Source of the DNA: a candidate division WOR-3 bacterium
GTDB lineage: Bacteria > Hydrothermota > Tepidihabitantia > SM23-42
Length of the DNA: 51,771 nucleotides
Direction of reading: 5' to 3'
NCBI GenBank assembly: GCA_014859085.1
Contig: JACUUY010000002.1
Coordinates: forward strand, 1 to 51,771
Shown one piece after another: positions 15,768-51,290 of the stretch. A model generated the notes under the pieces. It was not told the origin of the DNA and did not search any database. It worked only from the letters and a program-made list of their open reading frames with translations. The stretch's first letter is position 1, and each line of letters starts with the position of its first letter. The translations under genes were made by a program, and so were the position numbers.

Positions 15768-15783
15768 GGTCATCCTCCCGGTC

Positions 15784-17132: not shown

Positions 17133-17191
17133 AAGCAAACATCTCCTGTGATCGCATGTAAATATAATTCCCTGTCAATTTTATTATTGTT

Positions 17192-17236: not shown

Positions 17237-17280
17237 TGCATTATTCTGATAGTCCCGGCTCATTCAGATCCAACAGCGTT

Positions 17281-17308
17281 ATTATATGCATATTAGTCAT
17301 TCTGTCAA
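17281..17308 (-). promoter_or_regulatory. Sigma70-type promoter TTGACA-16-TATAAT for hdrCBA
   Basis: The minus strand reads TTGACA gaatgactaatatgca TATAAT. The promoter lies about 40 nt after the lplA-like stop codon and implies a ~140-nt leader before hdrC. Confidence 0.55.
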
Positions 17309-17346
17309 TCAGTGCCGATCAATCGCGGGACTCGACAAAACCGGTC

Positions 17347-18399: not shown

Positions 18400-18428
18400 T
18401 ATTTTTCTCCTTTCTCAATAATGGTCAT
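18399..18428 (-). CDS. Candidate mini-ORF (MTIIEKGEK) at the 3' end of repeat element copy B
   Basis: GAAGG lies 6 nt upstream of the ATG. The TAG stop (18401-18399) overlaps the GTG start of lplA (18399-18397) by one nucleotide (TAGTG). Confidence 0.2.
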   Translation of the reverse strand: MTIIEKGEK

Positions 18429-18512
18429 ATTGTGCCTTCGCGAATTTTGCCCATATCTTCGATATGGCTGTAAAATTCAGCGTCCCGCACTGGAGTGCGG
18501 GGGTATTGCCTT
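18426..18512 (-). repeat. Conserved structured intercistronic element, copy B
   Basis: It has the same architecture as copy A. Hairpin 1 is CCCGCAC-uCCa-GUGCGGG (18484-18501). Hairpin 2 spans 18442-18478, with the outer stem GAATTTT/AAAATTC and the inner stem CCATATC-GAA-GATATGG. The glcD-like reading frame terminates at a TGA inside the conserved core. Confidence 0.6.
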
Positions 18513-21125: not shown

Positions 21126-21164
21126 AGGTGCTCGAAACATAGAGCGATCGCGCGCACTTCAAGG

Positions 21165-21192
21165 TTGAAATCAATATGGTTCTGTCTATACT
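21165..21192 (+). promoter_or_regulatory. Sigma70-type promoter TTGAAA-16-TATACT; downstream mRNA would be leaderless
   Basis: The sequence is TTGAAA tcaatatggttctgtc TATACT. The first ATG (21193) abuts the -10 box, and the in-frame ATG at 21199 is 6 nt downstream. Confidence 0.5.
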
Positions 21193-21198
21193 ATGGTC

Positions 21199-22302
21199 AT
21201 GTCCAGGTTATTGCAGGCAACAAAGAGCACGAAGAATTATGCTTTCCGTGATTGGTTATGCGACAACAGCGGTCCGATCGTCCGATACCTTGTTGCACGA
21301 GATCTTGCCAGGTCTGCGAAGTATGACCTGAAGCGCCTGCAAGGAGTCGTGCTGGAATCGAGTATTGTCCGTTATTGGCTGGGATGCTTGACCGGCCGCA
21401 CCGGTTTCAATGACATCTACGGCTGCCGCGACACGTGTTTTGAAAACGCAATGGGCAAATTGACCTTGTTTGGCCTGCGCAAGGGCGTGAGCGATCTTGA
21501 CCGGTGTTGTGTTCCTTACCTTGCCTGGCTGGAACAGAACACGCGTTCCAGAAGGAAGGATGTGCTGTTCGATCTGAGTCGTGCAATTGTCGCTTCGTTC
21601 CTCGCCATGGCTGGGTATCTCTCTGAGAGATGTGTGCGCGATTCCGTTCTCCAACGGCTCGCTGCGATCTACTATTTCGTGAAAAGCAACGATTTCACGA
21701 TCTACGCAGAAAAGTCAGGGTTCCGAGGCATTCCTGTGGCATTTCGCAGGCATCCCCTGGTCAACCCCGAGCTCTACTCGAACCATGGTTTCCCGCTGCC
21801 ATGGATCTACGATATCCTGGCGTTCCGAGCCCTACGAACACACCTGGGGGATGGCGCAATCGACAGTCGCGTGGAGCGAGTTATATCGTATGTCCTGGAT
21901 CCACGCTACCAGCAGTTTTACGAAGGGTATGGCATTGTGCGCGCAAGGAATAACCGGTATTATGCGATGGGCTGGAATGTATGGTTGCCTCGCTATCGCG
22001 GTCTGCATGCTGACTCCCCAGAGATGGGATGCCTCGTTCAGAGGCTTGAGCTGCTGTCCCGGTTCCATATTGCCCGGTCCAGCAGATGGTTCAAGGAAAA
22101 TCTGGAGATGCTCGAGGGTCACAGAAATCAGTCTGGCAGGTATGCATTCCCAAAGAACTACATCCAAGAAAGACAGAATTCATATTATGTTACAGGCGGC
22201 CATATGGGGCTCGGTGAAAATCGCCGTCAGCGTCTAACCCGTGAGATCGAATCAACATATTGGATGGTGCGGATCCATAATAACGTCGGTACTGCGTCGT
22301 AG
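21199..22302 (+). CDS. Hypothetical alpha-helical protein (about 367 aa)
   Basis: This is a long ORF with sense-like composition. I chose the start at 21199 because of the promoter geometry; 21193 is also possible. I recognise no motif. Confidence 0.65.
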   Translation: MSRLLQATKSTKNYAFRDWLCDNSGPIVRYLVARDLARSAKYDLKRLQGVVLESSIVRYWLGCLTGRTGFNDIYGCRDTCFENAMGKLTLFGLRKGVSDLDRCCVPYLAWLEQNTRSRRKDVLFDLSRAIVASFLAMAGYLSERCVRDSVLQRLAAIYYFVKSNDFTIYAEKSGFRGIPVAFRRHPLVNPELYSNHGFPLPWIYDILAFRALRTHLGDGAIDSRVERVISYVLDPRYQQFYEGYGIVRARNNRYYAMGWNVWLPRYRGLHADSPEMGCLVQRLELLSRFHIARSSRWFKENLEMLEGHRNQSGRYAFPKNYIQERQNSYYVTGGHMGLGENRRQRLTREIESTYWMVRIHNNVGTAS

Positions 22303-22322
22303 TCATCTGAAGGAGGGAATGT

Positions 22323-22757
22323 GTGGCAAGGATGAAACTGGAAATGCCCGCGAAGTTCGCATTCGCGACGGACATACCCGTGTGCATAAGCAATATCAAT
22401 TACGGCGGGCATCTGGGCAACGATTCATTGCTTTCGCTGATACACGAAGCGCGCATGCGATTCCTGAAGCATCACGGGTTCAGCGAATCCGATATCGGTG
22501 GGGCCGGAATAATTATGGTCGATACGGCGATCCTCTACAAGTCAGAGAGTTTTCACGGCGATGTTCTGACCTTCGAGGTTGCCGTGGACAACGTCGGCCG
22601 GTCCGGCTGCGATTTCTTCTTCCGCGTGACGAACAAGGCGACGAAGAAAGAGGTTGCTTGTGCCAAAACGGGTGTTGTTTTTTTTGACTACGCGGCCCGG
22701 AAGGTGGTCAGTACACCGCCCGCGTTCATAGAATTATTCGGCCGGGCCGGTCGTTGA
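22323..22757 (+). CDS. Hotdog-fold acyl-CoA thioesterase (4HBT/YbgC-like)
   Basis: The sequence NINYGGHLGNDSLLSLIHEARMRFL...IIMVDTAILYKSESFHGDVLTFEV...FFFRV fits the family. AGGAGG lies 5 nt before the GTG at 22323. Confidence 0.85.
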   Translation: MARMKLEMPAKFAFATDIPVCISNINYGGHLGNDSLLSLIHEARMRFLKHHGFSESDIGGAGIIMVDTAILYKSESFHGDVLTFEVAVDNVGRSGCDFFFRVTNKATKKEVACAKTGVVFFDYAARKVVSTPPAFIELFGRAGR

Positions 22758-22792
22758 CATGGTCATAGTCATCTGTTCAACTGGAGGTGCAG

Positions 22793-23479
22793 GTGAAGAT
22801 AGTGCAGGCAAATAGTCTGGCCGCGACATTAGACCGTCTTAATGAAGTCTTCTTCACGGGCCGGCCCTTGCCCGCGAATGAACGGAAAAGGGTGGCGTCC
22901 TGGATCGCATCGCGCCAGGGAGCGGAGGGTTCTTACCGCGGCATGTTCGCGCCGACCCCGCTCGATTACCGAAGAGGTATCACACTCTTCACCGGCGAGC
23001 GCGTGGTTTCCGGCGCAGCGATCGGCCACATACTGGGCGAAGAGGCGAGCCGGGCATTGATCCTGCTGAATGGCAGTTCTGAAATCGCGCAGGAAGCATT
23101 GAAAAAGTCGAACAAAGGCATAATCAAAGCATTGATGAACTGCGAGATGCCTGGACGGCCGCGTGGCTTCTATTGCTGCGGCACGTGCACTGCGGCGATG
23201 TGGCGGCATTTGGCCGCGGGCGGGTTAAACAAGTCTCGAAAGCGTCTCAGTCATGGACTGAAGGGACTTCGAAAATACCGGGACGGCGTGGGCAAGTGGC
23301 GCCGGTTTCCTTTCTATTACACATTGCTGGCGCTGAGCGAGATCGAAGACAAACAGGCATTGGATGAAATGCGCTACGCGGCTATGGTGTGCGAAAGATA
23401 TCTAAAGCGCGGCAGGGTAAAAAGCAAGGTCATCACGCGCCGGCGTGCGCTGATAGAACGCGTGCTGGCAAAGTGTTAG
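22793..23479 (+). CDS. Hypothetical protein with a weak prenyltransferase/terpene-cyclase-like repeat
   Basis: VASWIASRQGAEGSYRG resembles the Q-x-x-D/E-G-x-W/Y alpha/alpha-toroid repeat. I prefer the GTG at 22793 because the one at 22787 overlaps the SD GGAGG. Confidence 0.6.
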   Translation: MKIVQANSLAATLDRLNEVFFTGRPLPANERKRVASWIASRQGAEGSYRGMFAPTPLDYRRGITLFTGERVVSGAAIGHILGEEASRALILLNGSSEIAQEALKKSNKGIIKALMNCEMPGRPRGFYCCGTCTAAMWRHLAAGGLNKSRKRLSHGLKGLRKYRDGVGKWRRFPFYYTLLALSEIEDKQALDEMRYAAMVCERYLKRGRVKSKVITRRRALIERVLAKC

Positions 23480-23505
23480 ACCGGATTATGAGAGGAGGTG
23501 TAACA

Positions 23506-24987
23506 ATGAAAAGCATTAGCAGGGTATTATCATCGATGAGCAGTCTTTCGATCTTCCTGACTCTCGTGATGGTGGCGCCATTCGTGCGGGCGCAGTGGCA
23601 AAATCCCGTGATCGACACGATAACGAACACGCAGGTCCAGAAGGCGACGACATTGCAGTCGCTCTGCCTTGATGACTCGGGGATGGTGCATATCGTCTGG
23701 CAGGAGCAGGTGGGCGGCAGCTGGCGCGTATACTATTGCACGAACCGCCCGGCCGGCACCTGGGGTGTGCCGCAGGCGGTCGGCGACACAACGCAGGCCG
23801 CGTCGGATCCGGCGGTCGCCTGGGGGTCGGACGGCGGGGTACCATTTGTCGTCTACGAGCAGAATTCAGATATCTATGCTGCGCCCTTGCCCGGCGGACC
23901 GTGGGAGCCCATCACCACCAACACGCAACTCGACTGCTCACCGACGATCGCGGTCGACGGTACGGGGTACCCCCACGCGGCCTGGATAACCGATGATCCG
24001 GGGAGCGGTCAGTACAAGATAGCGTATGCGGTTGGCCTCTTAGTAGTCGGTTCCAGCATTGTCTGGGATATCCAGACGCTGGCCGGCAGCAACCTCGGAC
24101 CCTATGGCACCGGTGCATCGCCTTTCATTGCCGTCACATCAGACGGCGTCGCGCACATCGTATACCGGGGCGGCGATTACGGGAGTTATCATATTCACCA
24201 TGCGTGGAATGATACCCTGGGCGGCACTGACTGGAACTACGAAATACTCTACAGCGGGAACGCGAATGATTTCACGGCGTCGATGGTCATTGAAGGCGAT
24301 GGCGATCTTCACCTGGCAGTGAGCGGGAACGACGGTTGGGGCTTCCCGGGCCGGGTCTATTACTTGTATAAGCCCTTTGGCCAGTCTTGGCAGCAGCACG
24401 CGCTGGCATCACTGGGCTACAGCGCAAGCCAGCCTTCACTTAGCGTTGACGGCAATGGCGAACCTCATATCGTGTGGATGGAAACGAGCGGTAACTTCTA
24501 TACCGGCAACATCTATTATTCGCACAAGCAGTCCGGCAACTGGCAAGTGACTTCTGTCATTGGCACCGACCACTTCGTGCCATCGTTCGGGATCGACGGA
24601 CCTGGCTACGGGCACATTGCGTGTCATACCGGCGGAAACACGAATCTGTATGATATTTATCATATTAGGAGCGGCAGCGTTCTCACGGGCATAGAAGAAT
24701 TAGAGGTTCCAGCGGGAGAAAACGGGCCGGGTAAAATATTGCACAACTATCCCAATCCGGCGAAAAGCTACTCACAGATAACTTATGGCAATGCAGTGTC
24801 AGGTTCGGTGACGCTCAAGGTATACAGCAGTGCCGGCCAGGAGATTGCAACTCTGCTCGATGAATTCAGACCGGCCGGCACGTACACGGTCAGCTGGCGG
24901 CCGCGGGATTTGAGCGCGGGCATATATTTCATTCGCCTCGGGACCGGTGGTTCGGTGCAAACCATGAAATGCGTTCTTGTTGAATGA
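23506..24987 (+). CDS. Secreted six-repeat (beta-propeller-like) protein with T9SS C-terminal sorting domain
   Basis: SD GAGGAGG precedes the ATG at 23506, and the signal peptide is MKSISRVLSSMSSLSIFLTLVMVAPFVRAQ. Six repeats share a D-x-G-x-x-H-(I/A/L)-(V/A)-(W/Y/V/C) pattern: GMVHIVW, GYPHAAW, GVAHIVY, GDLHLAV, GEPHIVW, GYGHIAC. The C-terminal tail is NYPNPAKSYSQITY...VTLKVYSSAGQEIATL...GIYFIRL. Confidence 0.85.
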   Translation: MKSISRVLSSMSSLSIFLTLVMVAPFVRAQWQNPVIDTITNTQVQKATTLQSLCLDDSGMVHIVWQEQVGGSWRVYYCTNRPAGTWGVPQAVGDTTQAASDPAVAWGSDGGVPFVVYEQNSDIYAAPLPGGPWEPITTNTQLDCSPTIAVDGTGYPHAAWITDDPGSGQYKIAYAVGLLVVGSSIVWDIQTLAGSNLGPYGTGASPFIAVTSDGVAHIVYRGGDYGSYHIHHAWNDTLGGTDWNYEILYSGNANDFTASMVIEGDGDLHLAVSGNDGWGFPGRVYYLYKPFGQSWQQHALASLGYSASQPSLSVDGNGEPHIVWMETSGNFYTGNIYYSHKQSGNWQVTSVIGTDHFVPSFGIDGPGYGHIACHTGGNTNLYDIYHIRSGSVLTGIEELEVPAGENGPGKILHNYPNPAKSYSQITYGNAVSGSVTLKVYSSAGQEIATLLDEFRPAGTYTVSWRPRDLSAGIYFIRLGTGGSVQTMKCVLVE

Positions 24988-38534: not shown

Positions 38535-40370
38535 ATGAAAGCGCGAAGTAGAATCTTGGTCAGGGGGATGACGTTCTATGCTCATGTCTGCTGTCTCTTG
38601 GTACTATTCTCGATTGTTCCAGGTGCCCTGGACTCTGCTACCTACGTCGTTAATAGAACCGTGCCGGACGACAATAATCCAGGCAGCCTCAGATGGTGCA
38701 TGAACGGTGCCAACGCCAACCCCGGGCCGGACACGATCTTGTTCAATATTGCCGGGGCCGGTCCCTTTGTCATTCCTGTTGTCGCGCAGCTACCGGTGCT
38801 TACAGACCAGGCAGGTGTGCTCATTGACGGGTTTTCACAGCCCGGAACCTGGGCGGGAGCGAATCCGCCGTCGACCGCCAATCTGCTGATAGTGATCGAC
38901 GGGACCAATGCCGGTGCGTCCCACGGTATTCACGTATTCTCCTCAAACAACACGGTCCAGGGCCTCGTCGTGCAGAATTTCCAGCAGGACGGAATAAGGG
39001 TCCAGGCTAGGCCGGATGTATCACAGAACAACATGATCTACAGCAACTTCGTGGGCACGGACCAGACCGGGACACTTGATCTGGGGAACGGAACGAACAT
39101 GCAGGGTCTCTGGGCCGGGATATATGTTATCTGCACGCCAGGGACTCTGGGCGTTGCCATCAATAATGTGGTGCACGGCAATCTGTCGTCGGGTAATTAT
39201 GCCGAGGGCATCGGCGTCGCAAGCTGCCCGCCGGGCGACGTTGCTTTCAACAGCGTACTGAACAATTACGTGGGCACGGACGTGGCGGGTGCGATCGACC
39301 TGGGCAATGATCACGACGGCGTATATATCGGCGAGGGCGCGCACGACAATGTCGTCGACGGGAATCTCATATCAGGGAACGACTATGAAGGCGTCTGTAT
39401 TGTCGGTTACGCTGAGGCCATGCCGCCGGTCGTGACGTACGCTAATGCCGTGACGAATAACATCATCGGCCTCGACGTCGCCCTTGCGCCGCTGCCGAAC
39501 ACGCGCGATGGTGTCAGCATCGGGATCTACGGTACCTACCTGGGTGGCTATGCGACCGACAACATCATAGCCACGAACACGATCGCCCATAATGGACGCA
39601 ACGGCGTGCTCGTGTGGGAACATTGGTCGAGCAATATCAATGCCGATCAGAACCGGATAACGCAGAATTCGATCTATAACAACAGCCTGCTTGGCATTGA
39701 CCTGGGAGATAACGGTATCACGTACAACGATGCCGGAGACTTTGACACGGGTGCCAACGAAGAGGTCAACTACCCGGTGATAACGTCCGCGGTCCACAGC
39801 GCAGGTCAGGCCACGATCTCCGGAAGTCTTGACATCGATACCGACCCGACTCAGGCTAATGTCGAGGTCTTCAGAGCGAGTCCGGATCCGTCCGGCTATG
39901 GCGAGGGCCGGTTCTATCTCGGTCTGGCGACTCCCAATGCGGCCGGCAACTGGAGCGTCGTGGTTCCTGGAGTGGTGGCCGGTGACACCATCACCGCAAC
40001 GACGACCGACATGAACTCCAACACATCGGAATTCTCCCAGAATTTCGTCGTGGTGACCGGTATCGAAGAGCACAGTGTTGGGCAGTCTCCGCAACGATAC
40101 GAACTCGCTCAAAACCGTCCGAATCCGTTCACCGGCGGGACCTTGATCAGTTATACACTTGTTGAATTCGCGCGCCTGGATCTCGGTATCTATGACGTCT
40201 CGGGCCGTTTGGTAAGAACGTTATTCAGCGGCCATCGCGCGCCGGGCACGCACACAGCGCACTGGGATGGTATTGATAACGAAGGCCGGCTCGCGTCTCC
40301 TGGCGTCTACATGTGTGTTCTCGATGCCGGTGGATTCATGGCAATGAGAAAGATGGTGTTTGCACAATAG
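38535..40370 (+). CDS. Secreted right-handed parallel beta-helix repeat protein with T9SS C-terminal sorting domain
   Basis: After a signal peptide come repetitive G-x-x-I/V...N-x-I/V-x-G-N rungs (NNVVHGNLSSGN, NVVDGNLISGND, NIIATNTIAHNG, RITQNSIYNN). The C-terminal tail is NRPNPFTGGTLISYTL...LGIYDVSGRLVRTL...HWDGIDNEGRLASPGVYMCVL. Confidence 0.85.
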   Translation: MKARSRILVRGMTFYAHVCCLLVLFSIVPGALDSATYVVNRTVPDDNNPGSLRWCMNGANANPGPDTILFNIAGAGPFVIPVVAQLPVLTDQAGVLIDGFSQPGTWAGANPPSTANLLIVIDGTNAGASHGIHVFSSNNTVQGLVVQNFQQDGIRVQARPDVSQNNMIYSNFVGTDQTGTLDLGNGTNMQGLWAGIYVICTPGTLGVAINNVVHGNLSSGNYAEGIGVASCPPGDVAFNSVLNNYVGTDVAGAIDLGNDHDGVYIGEGAHDNVVDGNLISGNDYEGVCIVGYAEAMPPVVTYANAVTNNIIGLDVALAPLPNTRDGVSIGIYGTYLGGYATDNIIATNTIAHNGRNGVLVWEHWSSNINADQNRITQNSIYNNSLLGIDLGDNGITYNDAGDFDTGANEEVNYPVITSAVHSAGQATISGSLDIDTDPTQANVEVFRASPDPSGYGEGRFYLGLATPNAAGNWSVVVPGVVAGDTITATTTDMNSNTSEFSQNFVVVTGIEEHSVGQSPQRYELAQNRPNPFTGGTLISYTLVEFARLDLGIYDVSGRLVRTLFSGHRAPGTHTAHWDGIDNEGRLASPGVYMCVLDAGGFMAMRKMVFAQ

Positions 40371-43036: not shown

Positions 43037-43921
43037 ATGAAGCATCGAACAGCCATCGGTATCCTCGCGTTCTGCGTCGTGGCAATGGCGGCGATAGCGG
43101 CTGCGACGGGCATAGTTTCCAAGGAGGGTCCGGGACCATACGAATACGAATCGATCCGCGGCCAGACCGTCGTCATCTACGGCCATGGGATCTACCAACA
43201 CATGTCGGCAGACGTGGCAATTCAAGGTATTGCGCAGGATTACGTCACGCTGTTCGTTGGTATTCCGTTGTTGCTGATAGCGCTGTATCTTGCGCGGCAG
43301 GGATCGCTGAGGGCACGGTTCCTCCTTACCGGAACGCTGGGGTATTTTCTCGTTACGTATCTATTTTACACGGCCATGGGGATGTACAACTACTTGTTCC
43401 TCGCCTATGTGTTCCTGCTGGGCGCGTCGTTCTTCGCTTTTGCGCTAGCGTTGCACGGCCTCCCGGTTCAAACGCTGCCGGAACGAATGCGCGCGCCGCA
43501 GCTCGTGCCGATCGTCGGCGTGTTCCTTTTGGTCGACGCGGTTCTGGTCGCGCTGATGTGGCTGAGCACAGTGGTCCCGCCGTTGCTCGACGGTACGATC
43601 ATCCCAGTTGCGGTCCAGCACTACACGACGTTGATCGTTCAGGGTTTTGACCTTGGGTTGCTGCTGCCGATGGCGTTTGTCGCCGGTCTGCTGGCGGTAC
43701 GCAAACGGCCTGCGGGCTATCTTATGTGCACAGTTTACGTCGTTTTTCTGTCGATCATGATGACGGCGCTGACCTCGAAGCTCGTTTTCATGGCCCGCGC
43801 GGGCGAGAATATCATACCGGCGATATTCATCATACCGGTCATCGGCGCGATCTCGGTCGTCTTCTCGATACTGCTGCTGGCAAGTGTCGGAAGCAGCCTC
43901 AGAGAAGGACGTTTGAAATGA
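43037..43921 (+). CDS. Polytopic membrane protein of unknown function
   Basis: It has about 7-8 hydrophobic segments. SD AGGAGG precedes the start, and the stop overlaps the flavodoxin start (ATGA). Confidence 0.7.
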   Translation: MKHRTAIGILAFCVVAMAAIAAATGIVSKEGPGPYEYESIRGQTVVIYGHGIYQHMSADVAIQGIAQDYVTLFVGIPLLLIALYLARQGSLRARFLLTGTLGYFLVTYLFYTAMGMYNYLFLAYVFLLGASFFAFALALHGLPVQTLPERMRAPQLVPIVGVFLLVDAVLVALMWLSTVVPPLLDGTIIPVAVQHYTTLIVQGFDLGLLLPMAFVAGLLAVRKRPAGYLMCTVYVVFLSIMMTALTSKLVFMARAGENIIPAIFIIPVIGAISVVFSILLLASVGSSLREGRLK

Positions 43922-44403
43922 CCGCACGGGCGAAAATACTGATCGTATATGATTCGTTCTTCGGCAACACGGAGAAGGTCGCGCGCGCCATGCGCGATGG
44001 ACTTGCAACAGAGGGGGATGCATCGGTCTGCCGCGTGAATGACGTGAAACCTGAGCAACTCGCTGGATTGGACGTGCTGCTCGTTGGCTCGCCGACGCGG
44101 GCCTTCAGGCCGACCAAGGCGACAATGGATCTCTTGAATGCCCTCCCGGGGAGTGGCCTCAAGGGTGTCAGAGTGGCGGCCTTCGATACCAGGATCGCGC
44201 CGGAAGATGTGAAACCGCGTTTGCTGAGGTGGATGGTGAAACTCTTCGGCTACGCGTCAGAACCCATCTCGAAGCGGCTCGTGAAGAAGGGTGGCGAACT
44301 TGCCCTGACACCCGAGGGATTCTGCGTGATGGATTCAGAAGGTCCGCTCAAGGATGGCGAACTCGAGCGGGCCGCGGCGTGGGCCCGGTCTGCGATGAAA
44401 TGA
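43918..44403 (+). CDS. Flavodoxin-family protein
   Basis: The sequence is KILIVYDSFFGNTEKVARAM...VLLVGSPT...AAFDT. I chose the ATG at 43918; the 43726 extension is out of character for the family. Confidence 0.85.
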   Translation: MTARAKILIVYDSFFGNTEKVARAMRDGLATEGDASVCRVNDVKPEQLAGLDVLLVGSPTRAFRPTKATMDLLNALPGSGLKGVRVAAFDTRIAPEDVKPRLLRWMVKLFGYASEPISKRLVKKGGELALTPEGFCVMDSEGPLKDGELERAAAWARSAMK

Positions 44404-44442: not shown

Positions 44443-44479
44443 AAAAAAGGGGACGGATGTACCGTCCCCTTCCTTTGTT
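44443..44479. terminator. Bidirectional intrinsic terminator between convergent genes
   Basis: The sequence is AAAAAA-GGGGACGG-atgta-CCGTCCCC-TTCCTTTGTT. The stem is 8 bp and GC-rich, with a 5-nt loop, an A-tract on one side and a T-rich tract on the other. Confidence 0.6.
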
Positions 44480-44499: not shown

Positions 44500-46998
44500 T
44501 TAAGCCAGCGCCTTCCAGATCATCTGCTGCAAGCCCATGACATTGATCTTGCCGCCGCCGTTGTCGGCGGCAGCGGTTGCCGCGTTCTTAAGCACCTGCT
44601 CGCAGGTAGCGCAGGCCGTCACGATCGTATCGACTTTCGTCTTCAGCGCTTCCTGGACGCGATTGGCCGCGATGCGGTTCGAGAGCTGATTGTCCGAGAC
44701 GAGGATACCGCCGCCGCCGCCGCAGCAGCGCGACGTGTTGTTCTTGTACTTCATCTCGACAAGCTCGAGGCCGATCTGCTTTATGATCTCCCTCGGTTCT
44801 TTCGTGATCTTGGCGCCCCGTGACAGGTCGCATGGATCGTGGTAGGTCACCTTGCCGGTCAGTTTCTTTATCTTGGCCGCCGGTAGTTTCTCGGCGATCA
44901 CCTGCATCGCGTGCTTTGCCTTTATTTTGTACGCTTCATTCAGGTAGACGGTACACGTCGGGCAGAGCGTGATCGCGGTGTCGTACGGGAAGAGTTCCTT
45001 GAATTTCCTCTTGTGTTCTTCAAAATCCTTGACAAAGCCGAGCGCTTCCATTGGATAGCCGCAGCACACTTCCTTAACGACCTTGGGCTTGATACCGATC
45101 TTCTCGAACAGCTTCAAGTACATCTTGGTCTGGTTGGGCCGGGCGAGGAACTGACAGCCGACAAAGACCGGTGTCTCTCCTTCCTGCAGCGGCGCCATCA
45201 CTTCGGTGTCGGCGAAAATATTGCCGGTTTTCTTGATATTGTCGATGAATGCCTTATGGCTGTCGTAGGCGAATCCGGCCTCAACAAGATCGGCGCGGGC
45301 AGCACGTACGATGTCCGGCACCTTGACCTTCGAAGGACAGCGGCGGTTGCAGTCGCGGCAAAGCGTGCACTGGTAGAGGGCACTGACGACCGAATCATCG
45401 ATCTCGAGTTCTTTTTCGAGCATACCGTAGGACAGAACGACGCGTCCCCGGCTCGAGGGAGGATCCCAGAGCAGATCGGTGAAAGTGGGGCAGACGTTCT
45501 TGCAGTAACCGCACATCGTGCAGGTCATCATTTCGTTTTCCCACTTTGCCAGGTGGCCTTCGAGTTTCCGTTTCGGATCGGTCGGATACCGCAATTCATG
45601 GACAAAATCGTCTTCCCACTGCCATAGTTTGTGCGGGTTCATGATATTGTTCGGGTCGAGCGCTTCCTTGATCACTTTCATCATCGGGATCGCGGTCTTC
45701 CTTTCGCGTATGAAATCGGGCGCCTTGGTCATGCCGATGCCGTGTTCGCCCGTTGTCGTGCCGCCCAGGGCATGTATCAGCTCGTAGATCTCCTTGACCG
45801 CGCTCTTTGCCTGTTTCCAGTGTTCGGGATTAGCTGCGTTCATCAAAACCTTCGTGTGCAAATTGCCGTCACCGACGTGTCCGTAGGGCGGTATTATTAG
45901 ATCGTACTTCTCGGATATCGCCCAGATACCGGCGACCGCTTTGGGGATCTTGGAAATAGGCACGGCCATATCGTCCGCGAGCATCGTTGTCGTGTATTCT
46001 TCCTTGAGCAGGCTCAAGGAGGGCAGCATCTGTTTCCGCGCCTTCCACAATTCGGTTATGCGTTTCTCGTCTTCCGTGAAATCGACTTTGATCGCGCCGG
46101 TCTGTCTGCAGATTTCGCCGACGATCTCGATATCCCTCTTCACGACTTCGGGCGCACCGTCCAGTTCGATCAACAGCATGCCGGCAACCTCAGGTAGGCC
46201 CATGTTGGTCGCTTTGTTGACCGCTCTGATGCACGGTTCGGACATTATCTCGAGTTCGGATGGGATCAGCGGTTTCGCAATGATATTGGCGACGCATTGT
46301 CCGGCTTTTTCCAGGTCGTCGAACGCCGCAACGCAAGCCGCGATCTTTGCCGGTTTGGGGGCGATACGGATATTCGCTTCGGTAATGATGCCGAGCGTGC
46401 CTTCAGACCCGACCAGCAACCTTTCAAGCTGGTAGCCGCTCGAATGCTTGATCGTATTGGTGCCGGTCCTTACTATCTCGCCGGTCGGCGTGACGACCTC
46501 AAGTCCCATCACGTAATCGCGTGTTGCGCCGTATTTCACAGCTTTGCCGCCTGACGCGTTGAGCGCGACCATGCCGCCGACGGTCGCGACTTCACTCGAA
46601 GCCGGTCCGGGAAAAAAGAACTTATAAGGTGCGAGTGCGGCATTGAAGTCATCGCACACGACACCCGGCTCAACGACACAGTAGAGATCGCTAACGCGGA
46701 CATCTCTTATCTTATTCATCCGCTGCATGTCGACAACAACGCCGCTGTCAATGGGCACCGCCGCGCCGCAGAGTCCTGAACCGGCACCGCGCGGCACGAG
46801 CGGTATTTTGTGCCTGTTTGCGAGCTGCACGATCTGCTGGACTTGTTTTGTATTCTGAGGTTGGACCACAACGTCCGGCTTCTTGCGATGGATGCCGCCA
46901 TCGAACGCATAGACATACAGTTCGGCATTGTTCGTCCCGCAATATTCATTACCAACGATATCACGCAATTGCTCGATTATTTCTTTCTTGACTGGCAT
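44500..46998 (-). CDS. Fusion protein: GlcD-like FAD-linked 2-hydroxyacid dehydrogenase + 2x[4Fe-4S] + two CCG domains (GlcF/HdrD-like)
   Basis: The FAD domain shows IPLVPRGAGSGLCGAAVP and the oxidase C-domain shows YGHVGDGNLH and TTGEHGIGM. The ferredoxin motifs are CTMCGYCKNVCP and CTLCRDCNRRCP. The CCG motifs are FVGCQF...EVCCGYP and YHDPCDL...SRCCGGGGG. Confidence 0.92.
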   Translation of the reverse strand: MPVKKEIIEQLRDIVGNEYCGTNNAELYVYAFDGGIHRKKPDVVVQPQNTKQVQQIVQLANRHKIPLVPRGAGSGLCGAAVPIDSGVVVDMQRMNKIRDVRVSDLYCVVEPGVVCDDFNAALAPYKFFFPGPASSEVATVGGMVALNASGGKAVKYGATRDYVMGLEVVTPTGEIVRTGTNTIKHSSGYQLERLLVGSEGTLGIITEANIRIAPKPAKIAACVAAFDDLEKAGQCVANIIAKPLIPSELEIMSEPCIRAVNKATNMGLPEVAGMLLIELDGAPEVVKRDIEIVGEICRQTGAIKVDFTEDEKRITELWKARKQMLPSLSLLKEEYTTTMLADDMAVPISKIPKAVAGIWAISEKYDLIIPPYGHVGDGNLHTKVLMNAANPEHWKQAKSAVKEIYELIHALGGTTTGEHGIGMTKAPDFIRERKTAIPMMKVIKEALDPNNIMNPHKLWQWEDDFVHELRYPTDPKRKLEGHLAKWENEMMTCTMCGYCKNVCPTFTDLLWDPPSSRGRVVLSYGMLEKELEIDDSVVSALYQCTLCRDCNRRCPSKVKVPDIVRAARADLVEAGFAYDSHKAFIDNIKKTGNIFADTEVMAPLQEGETPVFVGCQFLARPNQTKMYLKLFEKIGIKPKVVKEVCCGYPMEALGFVKDFEEHKRKFKELFPYDTAITLCPTCTVYLNEAYKIKAKHAMQVIAEKLPAAKIKKLTGKVTYHDPCDLSRGAKITKEPREIIKQIGLELVEMKYKNNTSRCCGGGGGILVSDNQLSNRIAANRVQEALKTKVDTIVTACATCEQVLKNAATAAADNGGGKINVMGLQQMIWKALA

Positions 46999-47158
46999 TT
47001 AACCCCCTTGATCTGTAACCCTCATGTCGCCCGTTCGTCCGCTCCTGCGCGGTGCCGGGATCTGTTCAGAAAAACAGTCTTGCTTGATCGTTCTTTCTTG
47101 GTACATTAACTTGACTGAAATTACCTGCCCGGGTGGGCAGCAGATGTTACTCCTGCTG

Positions 47159-47593
47159 TCAACCGCCTTTCTTCGCTTTGTCAACGTGGTCCTGAATAAA
47201 TTTCTGCAGCGCATCCGGACCGTGCGCAAGATTTTTCGACTCTTCATCGAGATTCGAAGGCTTGACTTTCATTATCCACCCGCCGCCGTAGGGGTCGCTG
47301 TTGATCAACCGGCAGTCATTCTCGAGTTCGCCGTTCACTTCGATGATCTCTCCCGAGATCGGAGAGACGAATTTGCCGACCCATTTCGAGGATTGGATCT
47401 TACCGCAGGTTTCACCCTGGCTCACCGAGTCGCCTTCGAACGGCAGGTCGACATATGTCGTATCGCCGGCCTGTTTCTGGTAGAAATCGTCCATGCCAAC
47501 ACGCACCGTGCCATCGTCTTCGACCTTAAGCCATGTGTTCTCATCGTGATAATATAGATCTTCGGGCATATTGTATCCCTGGATTTCCATCAT
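47159..47593 (-). CDS. GcvH-like lipoyl-carrier protein (no other glycine-cleavage genes nearby)
   Basis: By-eye alignment to GcvH matches VDLPFEGDSVSQGETCGKIQSSKWVGKFVSPISGEIIEVN to VDLPEVG...[25 protein letters not shown], with the lipoyl-Lys position conserved, and also PYGGGWIMKVK. I prefer the ATG at 47593 (AAAGGAGG 1 nt upstream; 4 nt to the adjacent in-frame ATG at 47590) over the GTG at 47608. Confidence 0.85.
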   Translation of the reverse strand: MMEIQGYNMPEDLYYHDENTWLKVEDDGTVRVGMDDFYQKQAGDTTYVDLPFEGDSVSQGETCGKIQSSKWVGKFVSPISGEIIEVNGELENDCRLINSDPYGGGWIMKVKPSNLDEESKNLAHGPDALQKFIQDHVDKAKKGG

Positions 47594-47700
47594 GCCTCCT
47601 TTCAGCACGTCAACGCGCGCACTGCACGTATCCGGATCATAAAAATGTTATCTAAGAAAAATTTCCATTTAAATCAATGCCTTGTACTTTTAACTTCAAT

Positions 47701-47728
47701 AGTATACTTATCCCGCGCGCAAAGTCAA
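47701..47728 (-). promoter_or_regulatory. Sigma70-type promoter TTGACT-16-TATACT for the gcvH-like gene
   Basis: The minus strand reads TTGACT ttgcgcgcgggataag TATACT. This implies a ~100-nt AT-rich leader. Confidence 0.55.
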
Positions 47729-47780
47729 TAGACGCCCATGCACGCCGATCTACGGGTGGTTGGTAGTATGCGCATGCCGG

Positions 47781-49163
47781 CTATTGCTCGGTATATATGT
47801 ATGCCAGCGGGTTCTCGATCTCCTCGCCGGTTTCCGTTCTCCTCAATTGCGTGACCGGCGTCAATCTTCCCCAGCGGCTGGAGTAAACGAATTTCCTCGG
47901 CCGGTAAACGAGCGTTTTCCTCAGTTTGGGCACAGTCAGCGCGGCATTCATGAGGAAGAGGATCTTTTCTTCGCCTTTTTCGGCAATGGCGGCATCGAGG
48001 GCTTCCTGCAATCGGTTGAAGGGCCGGATGAAAATGCTCTCCATGAGCGGGTGGTCGAGGCTGGTTACCGCCCACATTTTCGCCCACCGCGCGATCTCGG
48101 CCATTTTGGCTGCTTTGTGATAGCCGAGCTTGAATTCCTTGTCGATCTTGTCGAGCGTTTCCTGGGGTGTGCGGCAGCTGCTCAGGAGTTTGACAAAGGT
48201 ATCACTGCCCACGCCCATCCGGCATTTAGAGACGAGGATTATTATCCCGTTTTCATTGAGGGCGAGTTTGCCATTATCCAGCGCTTTCTGCGATTGATAG
48301 AGATCTATATCCATCGGGTACGGAGTAACCGCCACCACGATATCCGCCTTTTCTTTGATTTCCACAGAGAACACGCGGTGCGCCCGGCTGATCGCCGATT
48401 TGAGGGATTCAGTTATGTCGCCGGCCGTTGCCGCGTAGATCCGGTCGTGGCGGTCGAGTACGGTCATGATCGCGAAGATCTCCTTGTCTTTGATGGTCGT
48501 GATCGCGTCTTCCATGTCTTCGTGAACTGGATTGCCTTCAAGACTCAGCGCCCGGGCGCTGGATTGCAATGCCAGCTTGTGATTCTGCTCTATCGTCCTA
48601 TAGGCAGCCACGCCCGGCAGAAAAGATTTTCTGCCGCCGGTATATCCGGCAAAATAGTGCGGTTCCACCGAGCCGATGATGACAATCTTATGCGCCTCGA
48701 CCGCCATTTTGTTGACATACATCTCGGTCCCGTTCTTCGATGTTCCGAGGTAGACCATGTCCTCGTCTTTCGTGGAATCATGGGCGAATATCCTGTCTTT
48801 CAATTCAACGTAGAGGCCGCCGAAGATCTCCGCGTACTCCTCGGCCGTCGGTGCCCGGTGCATGCCCGTGGCAATGAGAAATTTGACATCCTTGTCTGCG
48901 ATTTGGGGATGGAGCATCTGCAGAACTTTGGCCGTCGGCGTCGGACGCGTGGCGTCATTTATCAGGAAAAGGAGGTTCTTTGCATCGCCGATGAATTGCT
49001 CGAACGTCTTGGACTCGATCGGGTTCTGCAGGGCTTGCCGCAGCGTGATTTCTTCATCACCGGTTGCGACGTCATTAGGATGGATGATCTCGCCGACATT
49101 ACGTTCATCCAGATAGACGAATACGTTCTCACGCCCGTACGGTATGGCAATCCTCAGCTTCAT
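47781..49163 (-). CDS. LarA-like nickel-pincer-dependent 2-hydroxyacid racemase/epimerase family protein (DUF2088)
   Basis: The sequence shows LFLINDATRPTP and IIGSVEPHYFAGYTGGRKSFLPGVAAYRTIEQNH (the GGRK Lys and the NH His positions of LarA). The size is 460 aa. Confidence 0.85.
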   Translation of the reverse strand: MKLRIAIPYGRENVFVYLDERNVGEIIHPNDVATGDEEITLRQALQNPIESKTFEQFIGDAKNLLFLINDATRPTPTAKVLQMLHPQIADKDVKFLIATGMHRAPTAEEYAEIFGGLYVELKDRIFAHDSTKDEDMVYLGTSKNGTEMYVNKMAVEAHKIVIIGSVEPHYFAGYTGGRKSFLPGVAAYRTIEQNHKLALQSSARALSLEGNPVHEDMEDAITTIKDKEIFAIMTVLDRHDRIYAATAGDITESLKSAISRAHRVFSVEIKEKADIVVAVTPYPMDIDLYQSQKALDNGKLALNENGIIILVSKCRMGVGSDTFVKLLSSCRTPQETLDKIDKEFKLGYHKAAKMAEIARWAKMWAVTSLDHPLMESIFIRPFNRLQEALDAAIAEKGEEKILFLMNAALTVPKLRKTLVYRPRKFVYSSRWGRLTPVTQLRRTETGEEIENPLAYIYTEQ

Positions 49164-49214
49164 GTTATCTCAAAGCATCAAATCGATCGCGTCCCTTCGT
49201 CGCTGGCCGGGCAG

Positions 49215-50150
49215 CTAGATCACTCCGGCACTCTCCAGCTGCTCGATGACGGTCTTCACGGCCGCCGCGGAGGTGTGCAGTGCTTCCAATTCCTCCGGAA
49301 TGAGCTCGAGTTCGATTATTTTCTCGACGCCGTTCTTACCGAGCAAAACCGGCACGCCGACGAATATCCCATCGATGCCGTATTCGCCTCTCAGATAAGT
49401 AGAGCAGGGGAGGATCCGCCTTTTGTCGCGGATGATGCATTCGACCATCTTGGCTACCGAGGCGGCCGGCGCATAGTAAGCACTGCCGGTCTTGAGGTAG
49501 GAAACGATCTCGGCGCCGCCCTTTCGGGTTCTTTCGATTATCTTGTCGATATCGTCTCTGGTCATCAACTCGGTGATCGGGATGCCGGCGACGGTCGAAT
49601 ACCTCGGCAGCGGGACCATGGAATCGCCGTGCCCGCCCAGCACCATGGCCGTTGTGTCGATGACCGAGACGCCCAACTTCTGCGCAACAAAATAGCGGAA
49701 TCTTATCGAATCAAGGACGCCGGCCATGCCGATCACCTTCTTGATCGCGAAGCCGGTCGTTTTCAGCGCCAGGTAGGTCATGACGTCAAGCGGATTCGTC
49801 ACCATGATAATTATCGAGTTGGGTGCATATTCGGCAGTCTTCTCCGAGACCGATTTTATTACCTTTGCGTTAGTGCTCAGGAGGTCGTCACGCGACATTC
49901 CGGGCTGCCGGGCAATACCGGCGGTAATGACGACGATCTCCGAATCAGCGAGGCACGAAAAATCGGTCGTGCCACGCAGTTCGACGTCGTAGCGCCTGAT
50001 CGGCGCTCCTTCTTCTGCATCAAGCGCCTTGCCCTCTGGAAGTCCTTGCACAACATCGATCAGATAGACATCCGCGATTTTGTGTTCGGCCAGGTATAGC
50101 GCAACAGTACTGCCGACATTACCGGCACCGATGATACTGACCTTTTTCAT
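49215..50150 (-). CDS. mdh: Malate dehydrogenase (LDH-like MDH family)
   Basis: The sequence shows KKVSIIGAGNVG, GIARQPGMSRDDL (Arg at the LDH Gln102 position), VTNPLD, GVLDSIRFR and LGGHGDSMVPL. Confidence 0.9.
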   Translation of the reverse strand: MKKVSIIGAGNVGSTVALYLAEHKIADVYLIDVVQGLPEGKALDAEEGAPIRRYDVELRGTTDFSCLADSEIVVITAGIARQPGMSRDDLLSTNAKVIKSVSEKTAEYAPNSIIIMVTNPLDVMTYLALKTTGFAIKKVIGMAGVLDSIRFRYFVAQKLGVSVIDTTAMVLGGHGDSMVPLPRYSTVAGIPITELMTRDDIDKIIERTRKGGAEIVSYLKTGSAYYAPAASVAKMVECIIRDKRRILPCSTYLRGEYGIDGIFVGVPVLLGKNGVEKIIELELIPEELEALHTSAAAVKTVIEQLESAGVI

Positions 50151-50164
50151 ATGTGATCCTCCTC

Positions 50165-51088
50165 TTAGAGTTCTAAAGTGTCCACGGCGTTCTTGATGAC
50201 GGTAATTGATTCCTCGAATTCGTGTCGCTCTTCGATCGTCAATGTCAATTCTATTATCTTCTCCACGCCGCCGGCACCGATGATCGCCGGTACGCCCAGG
50301 CAGAGATCTCTCACGTCATACTCACCCTGGAGGCAGGCTGAGACGCACAACACCCGCTTTGCATCCTTGATGATCGCCTCCGCAATCTCGGCGATCGCCG
50401 CGGCCGGTGCATAATGGGCAGTTGCGGTCTTGAGGTGTGAAAGGATCTCCGTCCCTGCGGTCCTGGTTCGCTTGATCAATTTGTCGATCCTTTCCGGAGG
50501 CAGCAATTGAGTAATGGGTATCCCTTCGACGCTGGCATACCGTGGGATCACGACCATGAAATCATGATGCCCGCCAATGACGACCGCGGTCGTATTCGCA
50601 GTCGAGACCTGCAGTTCCTTGGAGATGAATTCACGCAGCCTCGACGTGTCCAGGACGCCGGTCATGCCGATGATCTTCTTCGGGTCGAATTCACCCTTCT
50701 TCCAGAGGTAGCAGGTCAGGGCATCAACCGGCTCAGTTACGTTTATGATTATCGCTTCGGGCGCGTATTGTTTGATCTGGAGAATGAGCGGGTCCATTAC
50801 CCTGGCATTTGTTTCCAGGAGGTCGAGCCGGGACATCTGTGGCTTCCTTACGTGGCCGGCAGTTATGATCACTACTTCTGACCCGGCGATATCCTCCATG
50901 TTGTCTGAACCGTCGATCTTTGCGTCGTAGTACCTGACCGGTGCAGCTTCCATCAGGTCGAGGGCATTGCCTTTGGCCCTGCCTTCCACGACATCGACGA
51001 GCATAACATCGGCAAAGTTCTTTTCTCCGATGTAGAAGGCAGCGTTCGCACCAACATTGCCCGCGCCGATAATGCTTACCTTTTTCAT
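50165..51088 (-). CDS. Divergent MDH/LDH-family 2-hydroxyacid dehydrogenase (tandem paralog)
   Basis: It has the same fold signature (KKVSIIGAGNVG, HVRKPQMSRLDL, GVLDTSRLR) but altered conserved blocks: VTEPVD instead of NPxD, and IGGHHDFMVVI instead of GGHGDxMVP. SD GAGGAGG precedes the start. Confidence 0.85.
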   Translation of the reverse strand: MKKVSIIGAGNVGANAAFYIGEKNFADVMLVDVVEGRAKGNALDLMEAAPVRYYDAKIDGSDNMEDIAGSEVVIITAGHVRKPQMSRLDLLETNARVMDPLILQIKQYAPEAIIINVTEPVDALTCYLWKKGEFDPKKIIGMTGVLDTSRLREFISKELQVSTANTTAVVIGGHHDFMVVIPRYASVEGIPITQLLPPERIDKLIKRTRTAGTEILSHLKTATAHYAPAAAIAEIAEAIIKDAKRVLCVSACLQGEYDVRDLCLGVPAIIGAGGVEKIIELTLTIEERHEFEESITVIKNAVDTLEL

Positions 51089-51262: not shown

Positions 51263-51290
51263 ATTGTATTTATTTGCAGTCAAAAGTCAA
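51263..51290 (-). promoter_or_regulatory. Sigma70-type promoter TTGACT-16-TACAAT for the dehydrogenase operon (long leader)
   Basis: The minus strand reads TTGACT tttgactgcaaataaa TACAAT. It lies about 170 nt upstream of the ATG at 51088. Confidence 0.45.

Follow-up and report, generated by a model that had tools for sequence, protein, structure and literature searches.

In a 51,771-nucleotide stretch of the genome of a candidate division WOR-3 bacterium (assembly GCA_014859085.1, contig JACUUY010000002.1, positions 1 to 51,771; hereafter the window), five minus-strand genes at 44500-51088 encode two malate dehydrogenases (MDHs), a LarA-type racemase homolog, a paralog of the lipoyl carrier GcvH and a GlcD-type dehydrogenase fused to iron-sulfur (FeS) and CCG domains. 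We read them, with about an even chance of being right, as a soluble module for 2-hydroxyacid interconversion and redox chemistry that would have a protein-bound lipoyl group as its partner. An earlier note, written from the sequence alone, had listed these genes in this order and suggested a malate or lactate route with a lipoyl carrier beside its electron outlet. The five open reading frames (ORFs) are confirmed at the predicted positions, Pfam and NCBIfam matches agree with the gene calls, and the interpretation is supported by the evidence below. The genes, followed by the parts of the fusion, are:

50165-51088, minus strand: MDHa, a divergent paralog of lactate dehydrogenase (LDH)-like MDH, 307 amino acids (Pfam, NCBIfam, alignment)
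49215-50150, minus strand: MDHb, a canonical LDH-like, NAD-dependent MDH, 311 amino acids (Pfam, NCBIfam, structure match)
47781-49163, minus strand: homolog of the nickel-pincer nucleotide (NPN) 2-hydroxyacid racemases of the LarA superfamily, 460 amino acids (Pfam, NCBIfam, alignment)
47159-47590, minus strand: GcvH paralog, 143 amino acids from the ATG at 47590 chosen by the gene caller, or 149 (47159-47608) from a GTG start (Pfam, NCBIfam)
44500-46998, minus strand: GlcD::2x[4Fe-4S]::2xCCG fusion, 832 amino acids (Pfam, NCBIfam)
45619-46998, minus strand: fusion residues 1-460, GlcD-type D-2-hydroxyacid dehydrogenase domain binding flavin adenine dinucleotide (FAD) (Pfam, NCBIfam, AlphaFold2 model)
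45319-45543, minus strand: fusion residues ~486-560, HdrC-like ferredoxin with two CxxCxxCxxxCP motifs, for two [4Fe-4S] clusters (Pfam, cysteines)
44590-45165, minus strand: fusion residues ~612-803, two HdrB-type CCG domains (Pfam, NCBIfam, cysteines)

In the chain that we propose, the LarA homolog would equilibrate the L and D enantiomers of a 2-hydroxyacid, with malate or a similar dicarboxylate as the likeliest substrate, and the FAD domain of the fusion would interconvert the D-2-hydroxyacid and its 2-oxoacid; being D-specific, the flavoenzyme would need the racemase to reach the L-hydroxyacid pool. By way of the two ferredoxin-type [4Fe-4S] clusters, electrons would reach the double-CCG site of HdrB type, which would reduce or oxidise the lipoyl disulfide or dithiol on the adjoining GcvH paralog, and not the heterodisulfide of coenzymes M and B (CoM-S-S-CoB) or a quinone. 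The carrier, lipoylated by the ligase LplA encoded at 17347-18399, would then shuttle to the HdrB CCG site of an HdrABC-MvhAGD complex (11098-17138), where flavin-based bifurcation or confurcation might couple the hydroxyacid/oxoacid pair to H2 and ferredoxin.

The fusion has the parts that this chain calls for. Its Pfam domains are FAD_binding_4, FAD-oxidase_C, Fer4_8 and two CCG, and its AlphaFold2 model is confident (predicted local distance difference test 88, predicted template-modelling score 0.89). The ferredoxin segment matches HdrC (8rvv_C, 1e-11), the CCG half matches the NCBIfam models TfrB, LdhH, GlpC, DsrK and HdrB, and the motifs of an HdrD-like module, two CxxCxxCxxxC and two C...CC...CxxC, are all found. 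The CCG cysteines are C615, CC645/646 and C679xxC682, followed by C723, CC758/759 and C796xxC799; these ten and the eight of the ferredoxin are invariant in 66 homologs. The double-CCG of HdrB is a disulfide-reducing site, and we propose the corresponding region of the fusion as a disulfide/dithiol site. Fusions of GlcD, FeS and CCG parts are known from YdiJ and Dld-II; the window protein misses the equivalog cutoffs of glcD (426 vs 568), PRK11230 (304 vs 897) and YdiJ (187 vs 1350). Its nearest named homologs, 79-86% identical, are labelled candidate division WOR-3, and several come from complete chromosomes of metagenome-assembled genomes (MAGs). A Foldseek search with the whole model was dominated by the FAD domain and gave nothing new on the CCG half.

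The putative carrier belongs to the GcvH family (GCV_H PF01597, 6e-38), with a marginal pass of TIGR00527 (118 bits vs a cutoff of 116). Its K69 (codon 47386-47384) aligns with the lipoyl lysine of solved GcvH structures and is followed by W-V-G-K, which gives the motif K-W-V-G-K. We collected 128 distinct GcvH-like ORFs from all fetched loci, of which two were treated as artefacts; a tryptophan directly after the lipoyl lysine is present in 124 of the remaining 126, mostly as K-W-[VLI]-G-[KR]. The only two without K-W have an ordinary VK[AT]V motif, and one of them lies within the gcvTHP operon of the WOR-3 genome CP070664.1, where this separate canonical gcvT-gcvH-gcvP operon, with its ordinary GcvH (VKAVADL), stands 7 kb away. 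Because K-W is so general among these ORFs and a related genome has its own gcvTHP operon, the window carrier is, as judged by its sequence, a member of a GcvH subfamily distinct from the GcvH of glycine cleavage. Phmmer found no other GcvH in the whole window, which leaves the LplA at 17347-18399 with no other visible client; that ligase probably lipoylates the paralog. A role as an acyl carrier like that of pyruvate dehydrogenase was considered and rejected, there being no E1 or E2 genes.

Glycine cleavage would have a part if the fusion were a glycolate oxidase and the GcvH paralog served a path from glyoxylate through glycine to the cleavage system. The Joint Genome Institute source name of the protein is indeed 'glycolate oxidase', and glcD is the best NCBIfam match of the FAD domain, though at a score below cutoff. 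Glycolate, however, is achiral, which would leave a strictly co-occurring racemase without sense; neither gcvT nor gcvP is present in the 44500-51088 cluster, the canonical operon of CP070664.1 lying elsewhere; and the link with LplA, HdrABC and Mvh would go unexplained. We rejected this pathway as highly improbable.

The main result is the recurrence of this arrangement. We searched 80 genome loci around fusion homologs with the window proteins and called a gene adjacent when it lay within 6 kb on the same strand. Among 41 bacterial loci (WOR-3, Edwardsbacteria, Desulfarculaceae, Myxococcota, Zixibacteria, Sumerlaeota, CSSED10-310 and other MAGs), LarA is adjacent in 37 and a GcvH-like gene in 32. 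Several of the loci missing one or the other are contig ends, and in three MAGs whose LarA-GlcD locus has no adjacent GcvH the paralog is on another contig, beside LplA in Sumerlaeota and Zixibacteria SM23_81 and alone on a short contig in Edwardsbacteria MAG059. As an internal control, none of 26 loci with plain GlcD only (Thermoplasmata, Methanomassiliicoccales) has a LarA or GcvH neighbour. Chance adjacency was ruled out, as the same neighbours recur in dozens of genomes of several phyla. The conserved core thus has three members: LarA, the GcvH paralog and a GlcD/HdrD-like dehydrogenase, fused or split. Its commonest order is GcvH-LarA-dehydrogenase; in the window and its closest relatives, CP070686.1 and CP070802.1, MDHa-MDHb are followed by LarA-GcvH-dehydrogenase. 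The MDH pair is limited to a WOR-3/Edwardsbacteria subclade (4 of 20 WOR-3-type loci) and is an accessory of that subclade, outside the core. Conservation in relatives, which the earlier note had made a test of its proposal, came out in favour of that proposal: the LarA/GcvH/dehydrogenase neighbourhood is kept, with the refinements that GcvH and LarA are swapped with respect to most loci and that the MDH pair is confined to the subclade.

A second pattern concerns the archaea. All ten Methanosarcinales-type loci, among them those of the cultured Methanococcoides sp. FTZ1, M. alaskense and M. seepicolus, have LarA, GlcD and HdrD-like genes with no GcvH, and in none is a GcvH paralog or LplA found within 10 kb. 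Methanosarcinales make and use CoM-S-S-CoB; bacteria with the GcvH paralog are not known to possess it. A carrier that is absent from users of the heterodisulfide and present in bacteria is what would be expected if a lipoyl protein substitutes for that compound. Split archaeal LarA-GlcD-FeS/CCG clusters without GcvH or LplA were recorded at loci L038-L043 and L047 (Methanococcoides spp.) and at L046, L051, L064 and L068.

The ligase that would serve the carrier stands in a second cluster of the window, at 10522-19922, made up of:

18477-19922, minus strand: second GlcD-type FAD dehydrogenase, 481 amino acids, with no FeS/CCG part, 33% identical to the FAD domain of the fusion
17347-18399, minus strand: LplA-type lipoate-protein ligase with a C-terminal LplB-like domain (domain search)
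16641-17138, minus strand: HdrC (domain search)
15784-16644, minus strand: HdrB (domain search)
13659-15773, minus strand: HdrA::MvhD fusion (domain search)
12563-13528, minus strand: small subunit of an Mvh/Vhu-type [NiFe]-hydrogenase
11098-12561, minus strand: large subunit of the same type of [NiFe]-hydrogenase
10522-10989, minus strand: HycI-type maturation protease

HdrC, HdrB and HdrA::MvhD (13659-17138) constitute a flavin/FeS/CCG complex of the heterodisulfide reductase type. With GlcD, LplA, HdrC and HdrB together at 15784-19922, the earlier note was right to speak of a second association of GlcD, CCG and lipoate genes. In WOR-3, Stahlbacteria and TA06, orthologs of the 481-residue GlcD adjoin LplA-HdrCBA-Mvh. 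Genes of the two clusters are physically joined in other genomes: as LarA2-GcvH-MDHa-MDHb-LarA-fusion-LplA-HdrC-HdrB in WOR-3 RBG_13_43_14, as MvhG-MvhA-GcvH-LarA-fusion in L017 and L020, as LarA-GlcD-FeS/CCG-LplA-HdrC-HdrB-HdrA in L057 and as HdrC-HdrB-HdrA...LarA-GcvH-GlcD-FeS/CCG in L058 and L060-62. In Zixibacteria, likewise, GcvH-LarA-fusion-LplA stands behind an HdrA-like/MvhD gene set. At one such locus (L004, 1-8199) this set lies directly upstream and comprises a 1478-residue HdrA-like polyprotein, MvhD (FlpD), an FrhB-like protein, Fer4 proteins and a NAD_binding_1/DHODB_Fe-S protein, with no HdrB or HdrC; the CCG module of the fusion may therefore be the only disulfide site of that cluster.

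Scans anchored on the other two proteins gave the same neighbours. Of 80 loci anchored on LplA (WOR-3, Stahlbacteria, TA06, Syntrophaceae/Thermodesulfobacteriota, Aerophobetes, Thermoplasmatota and one Promethearchaeota chromosome), 45 had GlcD-type genes, with HdrA in 39, HdrC in 30, HdrB in 29, GcvH in 21 and MvhA in 17; 79 loci anchored on the GcvH paralog had LplA in 40, CCG proteins in 31, GlcD in 28, LarA in 25, HdrA in 24 and MvhA in 12. In Thermoplasmatota superclusters (L108, L111, L135, L144, L149, L158, L164), a GlcD/HdrD pair and a lipoate ligase stand between two Hdr sets, in the order HdrA-HdrC-HdrB-MvhG-MvhA-HycI-MvhD-GlcD-HdrD-like-LplA-HdrC-HdrB-HdrA. The recurrent GcvH/LplA/Hdr neighbourhood and the K-W subfamily give strong comparative support to the earlier suggestion that a lipoyl carrier may be the electron outlet of the CCG module. 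We suggest further, with confidence that falls somewhat short of even, that in non-methanogenic bacteria and archaea HdrB/HdrD CCG sites have as their physiological substrate a K-W GcvH paralog served by its own LplA, which would replace CoM-S-S-CoB and wire racemase-fed dehydrogenases to HdrABC-Mvh.

Characterised bacterial GlcD/FeS-CCG enzymes are quinone-linked, and the CCG module here could likewise deliver its electrons to a quinone or another non-lipoyl acceptor in the manner of GlcDEF, GlpC, Dld-II or YdiJ, with GcvH and LplA merely a co-located lipoylation relay or a general carrier. The NCBIfam matches to GlcF, GlpC, LdhH and YdiJ fit this view, as do units of GcvH, LplA and a radical S-adenosylmethionine (radical-SAM) protein that stand free of any such dehydrogenase in Desulfobacterales. 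In the 44500-51088 cluster, however, no membrane segment is predicted in any protein, including a transmembrane or hydrophobic segment in the fusion, and no HdrE-like or other membrane partner is encoded. The adjacency of GcvH in distant bacterial phyla and its absence from the CoM-S-S-CoB-using Methanosarcinales also argue otherwise; the carrier and its ligase recur beside HdrABC and Mvh, which handle disulfides rather than quinones; and glycine cleavage has its own operon in CP070664.1. On balance we think a quinone or other non-lipoyl acceptor improbable.

A lipoate-binding protein with a dedicated ligase and Hdr-like genes also recalls the sHdr-LbpA system of sulfur oxidation (PMC6067878, PMC10332631), in which lipoate-binding proteins are essential partners of sHdr and are defined by two conserved cysteines, one N-terminal and one C-terminal, and by association with shdr and sulfurtransferase genes (PMC6067878). 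The GcvH paralog lacks this pair near its termini, its only cysteines being those in ETCGK and ENDCRL; TusA, DsrE, rhodanese and the hdrC1B1A-hyp-hdrC2B2 arrangement are absent, and the partners are instead GlcD, LarA and a hydrogenase. No lipoyl synthase was identified in the window either. Downstream of HycI (8189-10371) there are two radical-SAM genes, for proteins of 235 and 473 amino acids, which were tried as LipS1/LipS2 and rejected, as NCBIfam places them as NrdG-type (177 bits, above cutoff) and SPASM-type with no lipoyl-synthase match. These membership tests largely refute an LbpA-type role in sulfur oxidation, which we rate as barely credible. Both radical-SAM genes keep their position after Hdr-Mvh in the WOR-3 loci L088, L089 and L139, and several Stahlbacteria loci, among others, keep only the NrdG-like one.

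The remaining core member, the LarA homolog, has the domains Lar_N (PF09861, 2e-56) and LarA_C (PF21113, 1.5e-14). We aligned it with Lactiplantibacillus plantarum LarA, with Mar2 and with 55 GlcD/CCG-linked homologs. The residues that bind NPN (K184, H200, R75) and those of catalysis (D72, H108, H174, K298) (PMC7583248) are all kept by the window protein and by each of the 55 homologs, which answers the doubt raised earlier about its Lys/His nickel-pincer ligands. The linked homologs have in common a signature of Y-F after H174, Q-S-Q-K and G-[YWF]-H-K, in the window YF, QSQK and GYHK. The counterparts are Y-K, QAQK and GAHK in Mar2 and F-F, QAVK and DQWT in lactate racemase, so that the substrate region agrees with Mar2 in the glutamine before K298 and in H-K, and not in the loop (Y-F, not Y-K). 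By these residues the signature is malate-racemase-like and not lactate-racemase-like. The best NCBIfam match is to malate racemase LarAH6 (NF052593, 383 bits vs a cutoff of 500), a second malate-racemase model, NF052595, gives 292 bits vs 462, and the best structure match is to malate racemase Mar2 (6d6z, 1e-66).

The closest cultured relative, 53% identical, is encoded on the mobilisable L. plantarum plasmid pLP12-1 (NZ_CP018325.1, L085) and has YF, QSQK and GYHK as well. At 4579-12138 of L085 it is accompanied by a DASS dicarboxylate-type anion permease, a LysR regulator, larB (frameshifted), larC and larE; pLP12-1 offers a cultured source for this LarA clade. The linked clade is probably Desguin's LarAH group 4, whose tabulated neighbours include COG0247 (39%), COG0277 (17%) and COG1908 (17%); LarA racemases are often co-located with COG0277/COG0247 dehydrogenases, and COG0509 (GcvH) is not among the tabulated neighbours of any LarA group (PMC7583248).

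We put the probability of a malate-type substrate somewhat above even and consider other hydroxyacids unlikely, lactate a shade more so. A dicarboxylate is favoured by Q297 and the invariant lysine of the H-K motif in the linked homologs, as the corresponding lysine of Mar2 is thought to bind the second carboxylate (PMC7583248); by the family and structure matches; by the MDH pair, which lies within the same gene string in four related genomes; and by the dicarboxylate-type permease encoded with the pLP12-1 homolog. The same mechanism could run on lactate, with L/D racemisation followed by D-lactate oxidation and the MDH genes as mere neighbours. In sequence and in fold the FAD domain is nearer to D-lactate dehydrogenases than to D-2-hydroxyglutarate or D-malate dehydrogenases, which counts against malate: template-modelling scores in Foldseek were 0.89-0.93 for mouse LDHD, an isopod D-lactate dehydrogenase and LctD, and 0.86-0.87 for D-2-hydroxyglutarate dehydrogenase. 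Moreover, HdrD/GlcD pairs are usually read as lactate dehydrogenases (PMC6421429, PMC10667645), and most loci are without the MDH pair. Yet the lactate-racemase signature (F-F, V297, W358) occurs in none of the 55 linked LarA proteins, and together with the dicarboxylate features above this makes lactate, in our judgement, a minority reading.

Both MDHs have Ldh_1_N and Ldh_1_C domains (Pfam), pass the bacterial MDH equivalog TIGR01763 (MDHa 367 bits, MDHb 446 bits; cutoff 352) and keep the LDH-like MDH residues R102, R109, D168, R171 and H195; the arginine at the LDH Gln102 position, which the earlier note had pointed out, lies in GIARQPGMSR and GHVRKPQMSR. MDHb has MDH 4plh as its best solved structure (E=1e-113). 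MDHa, 50% identical to it, is as divergent as had been said and moreover has a changed active site, with TEPVD for TNPLD (N140E, at a normally invariant Asn), GGHHD (Gly196->His) and TATAHYAP for GSAYYAP, substitutions that are kept in all five MDHa sequences (the window and four related genomes). MDHa may thus act on a different 2-hydroxy/2-oxo dicarboxylate. In the WOR-3 subclade, the two upstream NAD-linked L-malate dehydrogenases would tie the same malate/oxaloacetate pool to NADH, and with the racemase and the D-enzyme, malate/oxaloacetate could mediate between NADH and the lipoyl pool.

Two further features go with this subclade. A basic C-terminal extension of ~45 amino acids on LarA (residues ~416-460; 47781-47915, minus strand; from the alignment), KLRKxLVYRPxKFxYxSxWE..., occurs only in the MDH-linked proteins (window, L006, L007, L019, L031) and is absent from the other linked homologs, Mar2 and LarA. 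Three related WOR-3 genomes also have, immediately upstream of MDHa, another LarA paralog, ~40% identical (L006 4415-5731, L007 4445-5728, L031 4605-5933), with all catalytic residues and the signature Q-[ST]-L-K, G-D-H-[NT]; in the window its place is taken by a divergent plus-strand gene that starts at 51363.

Several points weigh against the lipoyl-linked module and its malate substrate. Lipoyl proteins are not known as partners of the CCG modules in GlcF, GlpC, LutA and SdhE. The K-W GcvH of many Desulfobacterales occurs only with LplA and a radical-SAM gene, with no Hdr or GlcD nearby; such trios (the radical-SAM protein having 350 amino acids) were seen at L232 7992-10558 and at ~25 other Desulfobacterales/Deltaproteobacteria loci (L217-L245). 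They may be self-contained units of lipoate assembly, and as they stand alone, the GcvH-LplA pair can evidently be a free-standing lipoylation unit. The LarA homolog does not reach the malate-racemase equivalog cutoffs of NCBIfam, and LarAH4, the sole tested member of its probable group, showed no activity after refolding (PMC7583248). The cofactor genes larB, larC and larE are absent from the window (phmmer, E<=10, with authentic L. plantarum LarB/C/E as queries), as the earlier note had observed, and were found in no fetched flank either by regular expressions or by phmmer with these queries. A degenerate LarC motif matched at least 120 loci in genome contigs, with no WOR-3 genome among the matches listed. 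Indirect support for such genes comes from the lar string on pLP12-1 and from one Thermoplasmatales MAG with a GlcD-HdrD-LplA-Hdr-Mvh cluster, which also has larE-larB-larC (L325). A search for RNA evidence of co-transcription returned matches of the region to DNA runs only, from a volcano metagenome and a sediment metagenome, the former including a 10.9-kb Logan contig with an identical stretch.

Energetics also set limits. Oxaloacetate/malate lies near -170 mV, pyruvate/lactate near -190 mV, H+/H2 at -0.41 V and ferredoxin at about -0.45 to -0.5 V. Relative to lipoamide, at about -290 mV (PMC6067878), oxidation of the hydroxyacid with lipoyl reduction would be uphill by ~100-120 mV under standard conditions, a further point against the proposal; it would therefore need low product levels, or else the chain runs reductively. 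Reduction of the oxoacid by the lipoyl couple would be downhill, and with a lipoyl couple the Hdr/Mvh half would be feasible either way, comparable to NADH-dependent confurcating hydrogenases. The system could accordingly use H2 to reduce oxaloacetate or pyruvate, with ferredoxin reduced alongside, or oxidise the hydroxyacid with evolution of H2 at low levels of product and H2.

Other features of the region and the window are as follows:

51263-51290, minus strand: sigma-70-like promoter match upstream of MDHa, TTGACT-16-TACAAT (consensus match only)
47701-47746, minus strand: short hairpin after the LarA stop, then a sigma-70-like site before GcvH (sequence pattern)
44447-44471, no strand assigned: GC-rich palindromic hairpin, terminator-like for the convergent fusion and flavodoxin genes

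The site upstream of GcvH (47728-47701) reads TTGACT-16-TATACT and, with the hairpin, agrees with the earlier proposal of a promoter of its own for that gene. The short-chain flavodoxin gene (43918-44403, plus strand) converges on the fusion gene and shares the 44447-44471 hairpin. Elsewhere in the window, ORFs without a Pfam match encode a protein of 995 amino acids (2353-5340, plus strand) and four consecutive proteins of 268, 369, 148 and 230 amino acids (20319-23479, plus strand), and three proteins (5406-6998, 23389-24987, 38535-40370) have C-terminal sorting tails of the type IX secretion system/FlgD-Ig type.

Many anaerobes that do not produce coenzyme M or B nevertheless have HdrABC-MvhADG and HdrD/GlcD genes, and what their 'heterodisulfide' might be is a long-standing question (PMC10667645, PMC9723716). 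Published proposals have HdrD/GlcD pairs linking the oxidation of lactate to reduction of a heterodisulfide, but leave the disulfide of non-methanogens unnamed and call the role of the pairs there puzzling (PMC6421429, PMC10667645). For Culexarchaeia, a brief remark raises the idea that a GcvH encoded within a hydrogenase/Hdr cluster carries a disulfide for HdrB (PMC9723716), and in sHdr sulfur oxidation the use of lipoate-binding proteins with their own ligases is established (PMC6067878). We found in the literature no published description of the LarA-GcvH-GlcD/CCG module or of the recurrent LplA-HdrABC-Mvh link. A testable candidate for the missing disulfide, a lipoylated GcvH paralog with its own ligase, emerges from the window locus together with about 200 related ones, and the window locus also provides a physiological context for the largest uncharacterised clade of malate-racemase-like LarA proteins. 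If the proposal is true, lipoate has roles outside those already known in sulfur oxidation and in the 2-oxoacid and glycine complexes; a previously unrecognised bifurcation or confurcation pathway mediated by a lipoyl protein would link malate or lactate, H2 and ferredoxin; and models of H2, lactate/malate and ferredoxin flux would change for WOR-3, Zixibacteria, Thermoplasmatota, Syntrophaceae and other sediment anaerobes.

Set beside known systems, each part of the module has a relative. Mar2/LarAH6 of Thermoanaerobacterium thermosaccharolyticum (PDB 6D6Z) and L. plantarum LarA have the fold of the window LarA, with Lar_N and LarA_C, and the same NPN-binding and catalytic residues; the window protein is only 35% identical to Mar2 and 30% to LarA and belongs to a separate clade that, unlike either, is tied to GlcD/FeS-CCG, MvhD and GcvH. 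The architecture of the fusion is that of YdiJ (the D-2-hydroxyglutarate dehydrogenase of E. coli), Shewanella Dld-II, the D-lactate dehydrogenase of D. vulgaris (GlcD and GlcF-like) and GlcDEF, all of which oxidise 2-hydroxyacids with D specificity. It is not an ortholog of any of these, however; it is predicted to be soluble, with no membrane partner nearby, and its strict linkage to a racemase and a lipoyl carrier has no counterpart in those systems.

The idea of a GlcD passing electrons to an HdrD-type disulfide site is shared with the archaeal HdrD/GlcD pairs of Bathyarchaeia, Methanomethylicia, Korarchaeia and Archaeoglobus. Unlike these, the window locus is bacterial and supplies both a candidate disulfide, lipoyl-GcvH with LplA, and a racemase, whereas the Methanosarcinales versions of the LarA-GlcD-HdrD-like cluster have no GcvH. 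Like sHdr-LbpA with its sLpl(AB), the window system combines genes for Hdr-like CCG proteins with those for a GcvH-like lipoyl protein and its dedicated ligase, and in both lipoate would be used beyond the classical 2-oxoacid and glycine complexes. The two differ in that neither LbpA cysteines nor sulfurtransferases nor LipS1/S2 were identified in the window, and its partners are 2-hydroxyacid enzymes and a [NiFe]-hydrogenase where those of sHdr-LbpA are sulfur-oxidation proteins. Finally, methanogen MvhADG-HdrABC and Ldh-EtfAB (LctBCD) of Acetobacterium woodii, whose LctD is structurally close to the FAD domain of the fusion, use flavin-based bifurcation or confurcation to connect H2 or ferredoxin with an acceptor near -150 to -200 mV, as we propose here. 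In place of the CoM/CoB heterodisulfide of the one and the Etf of the other, the mediator in the WOR-3 system would be a lipoyl protein.

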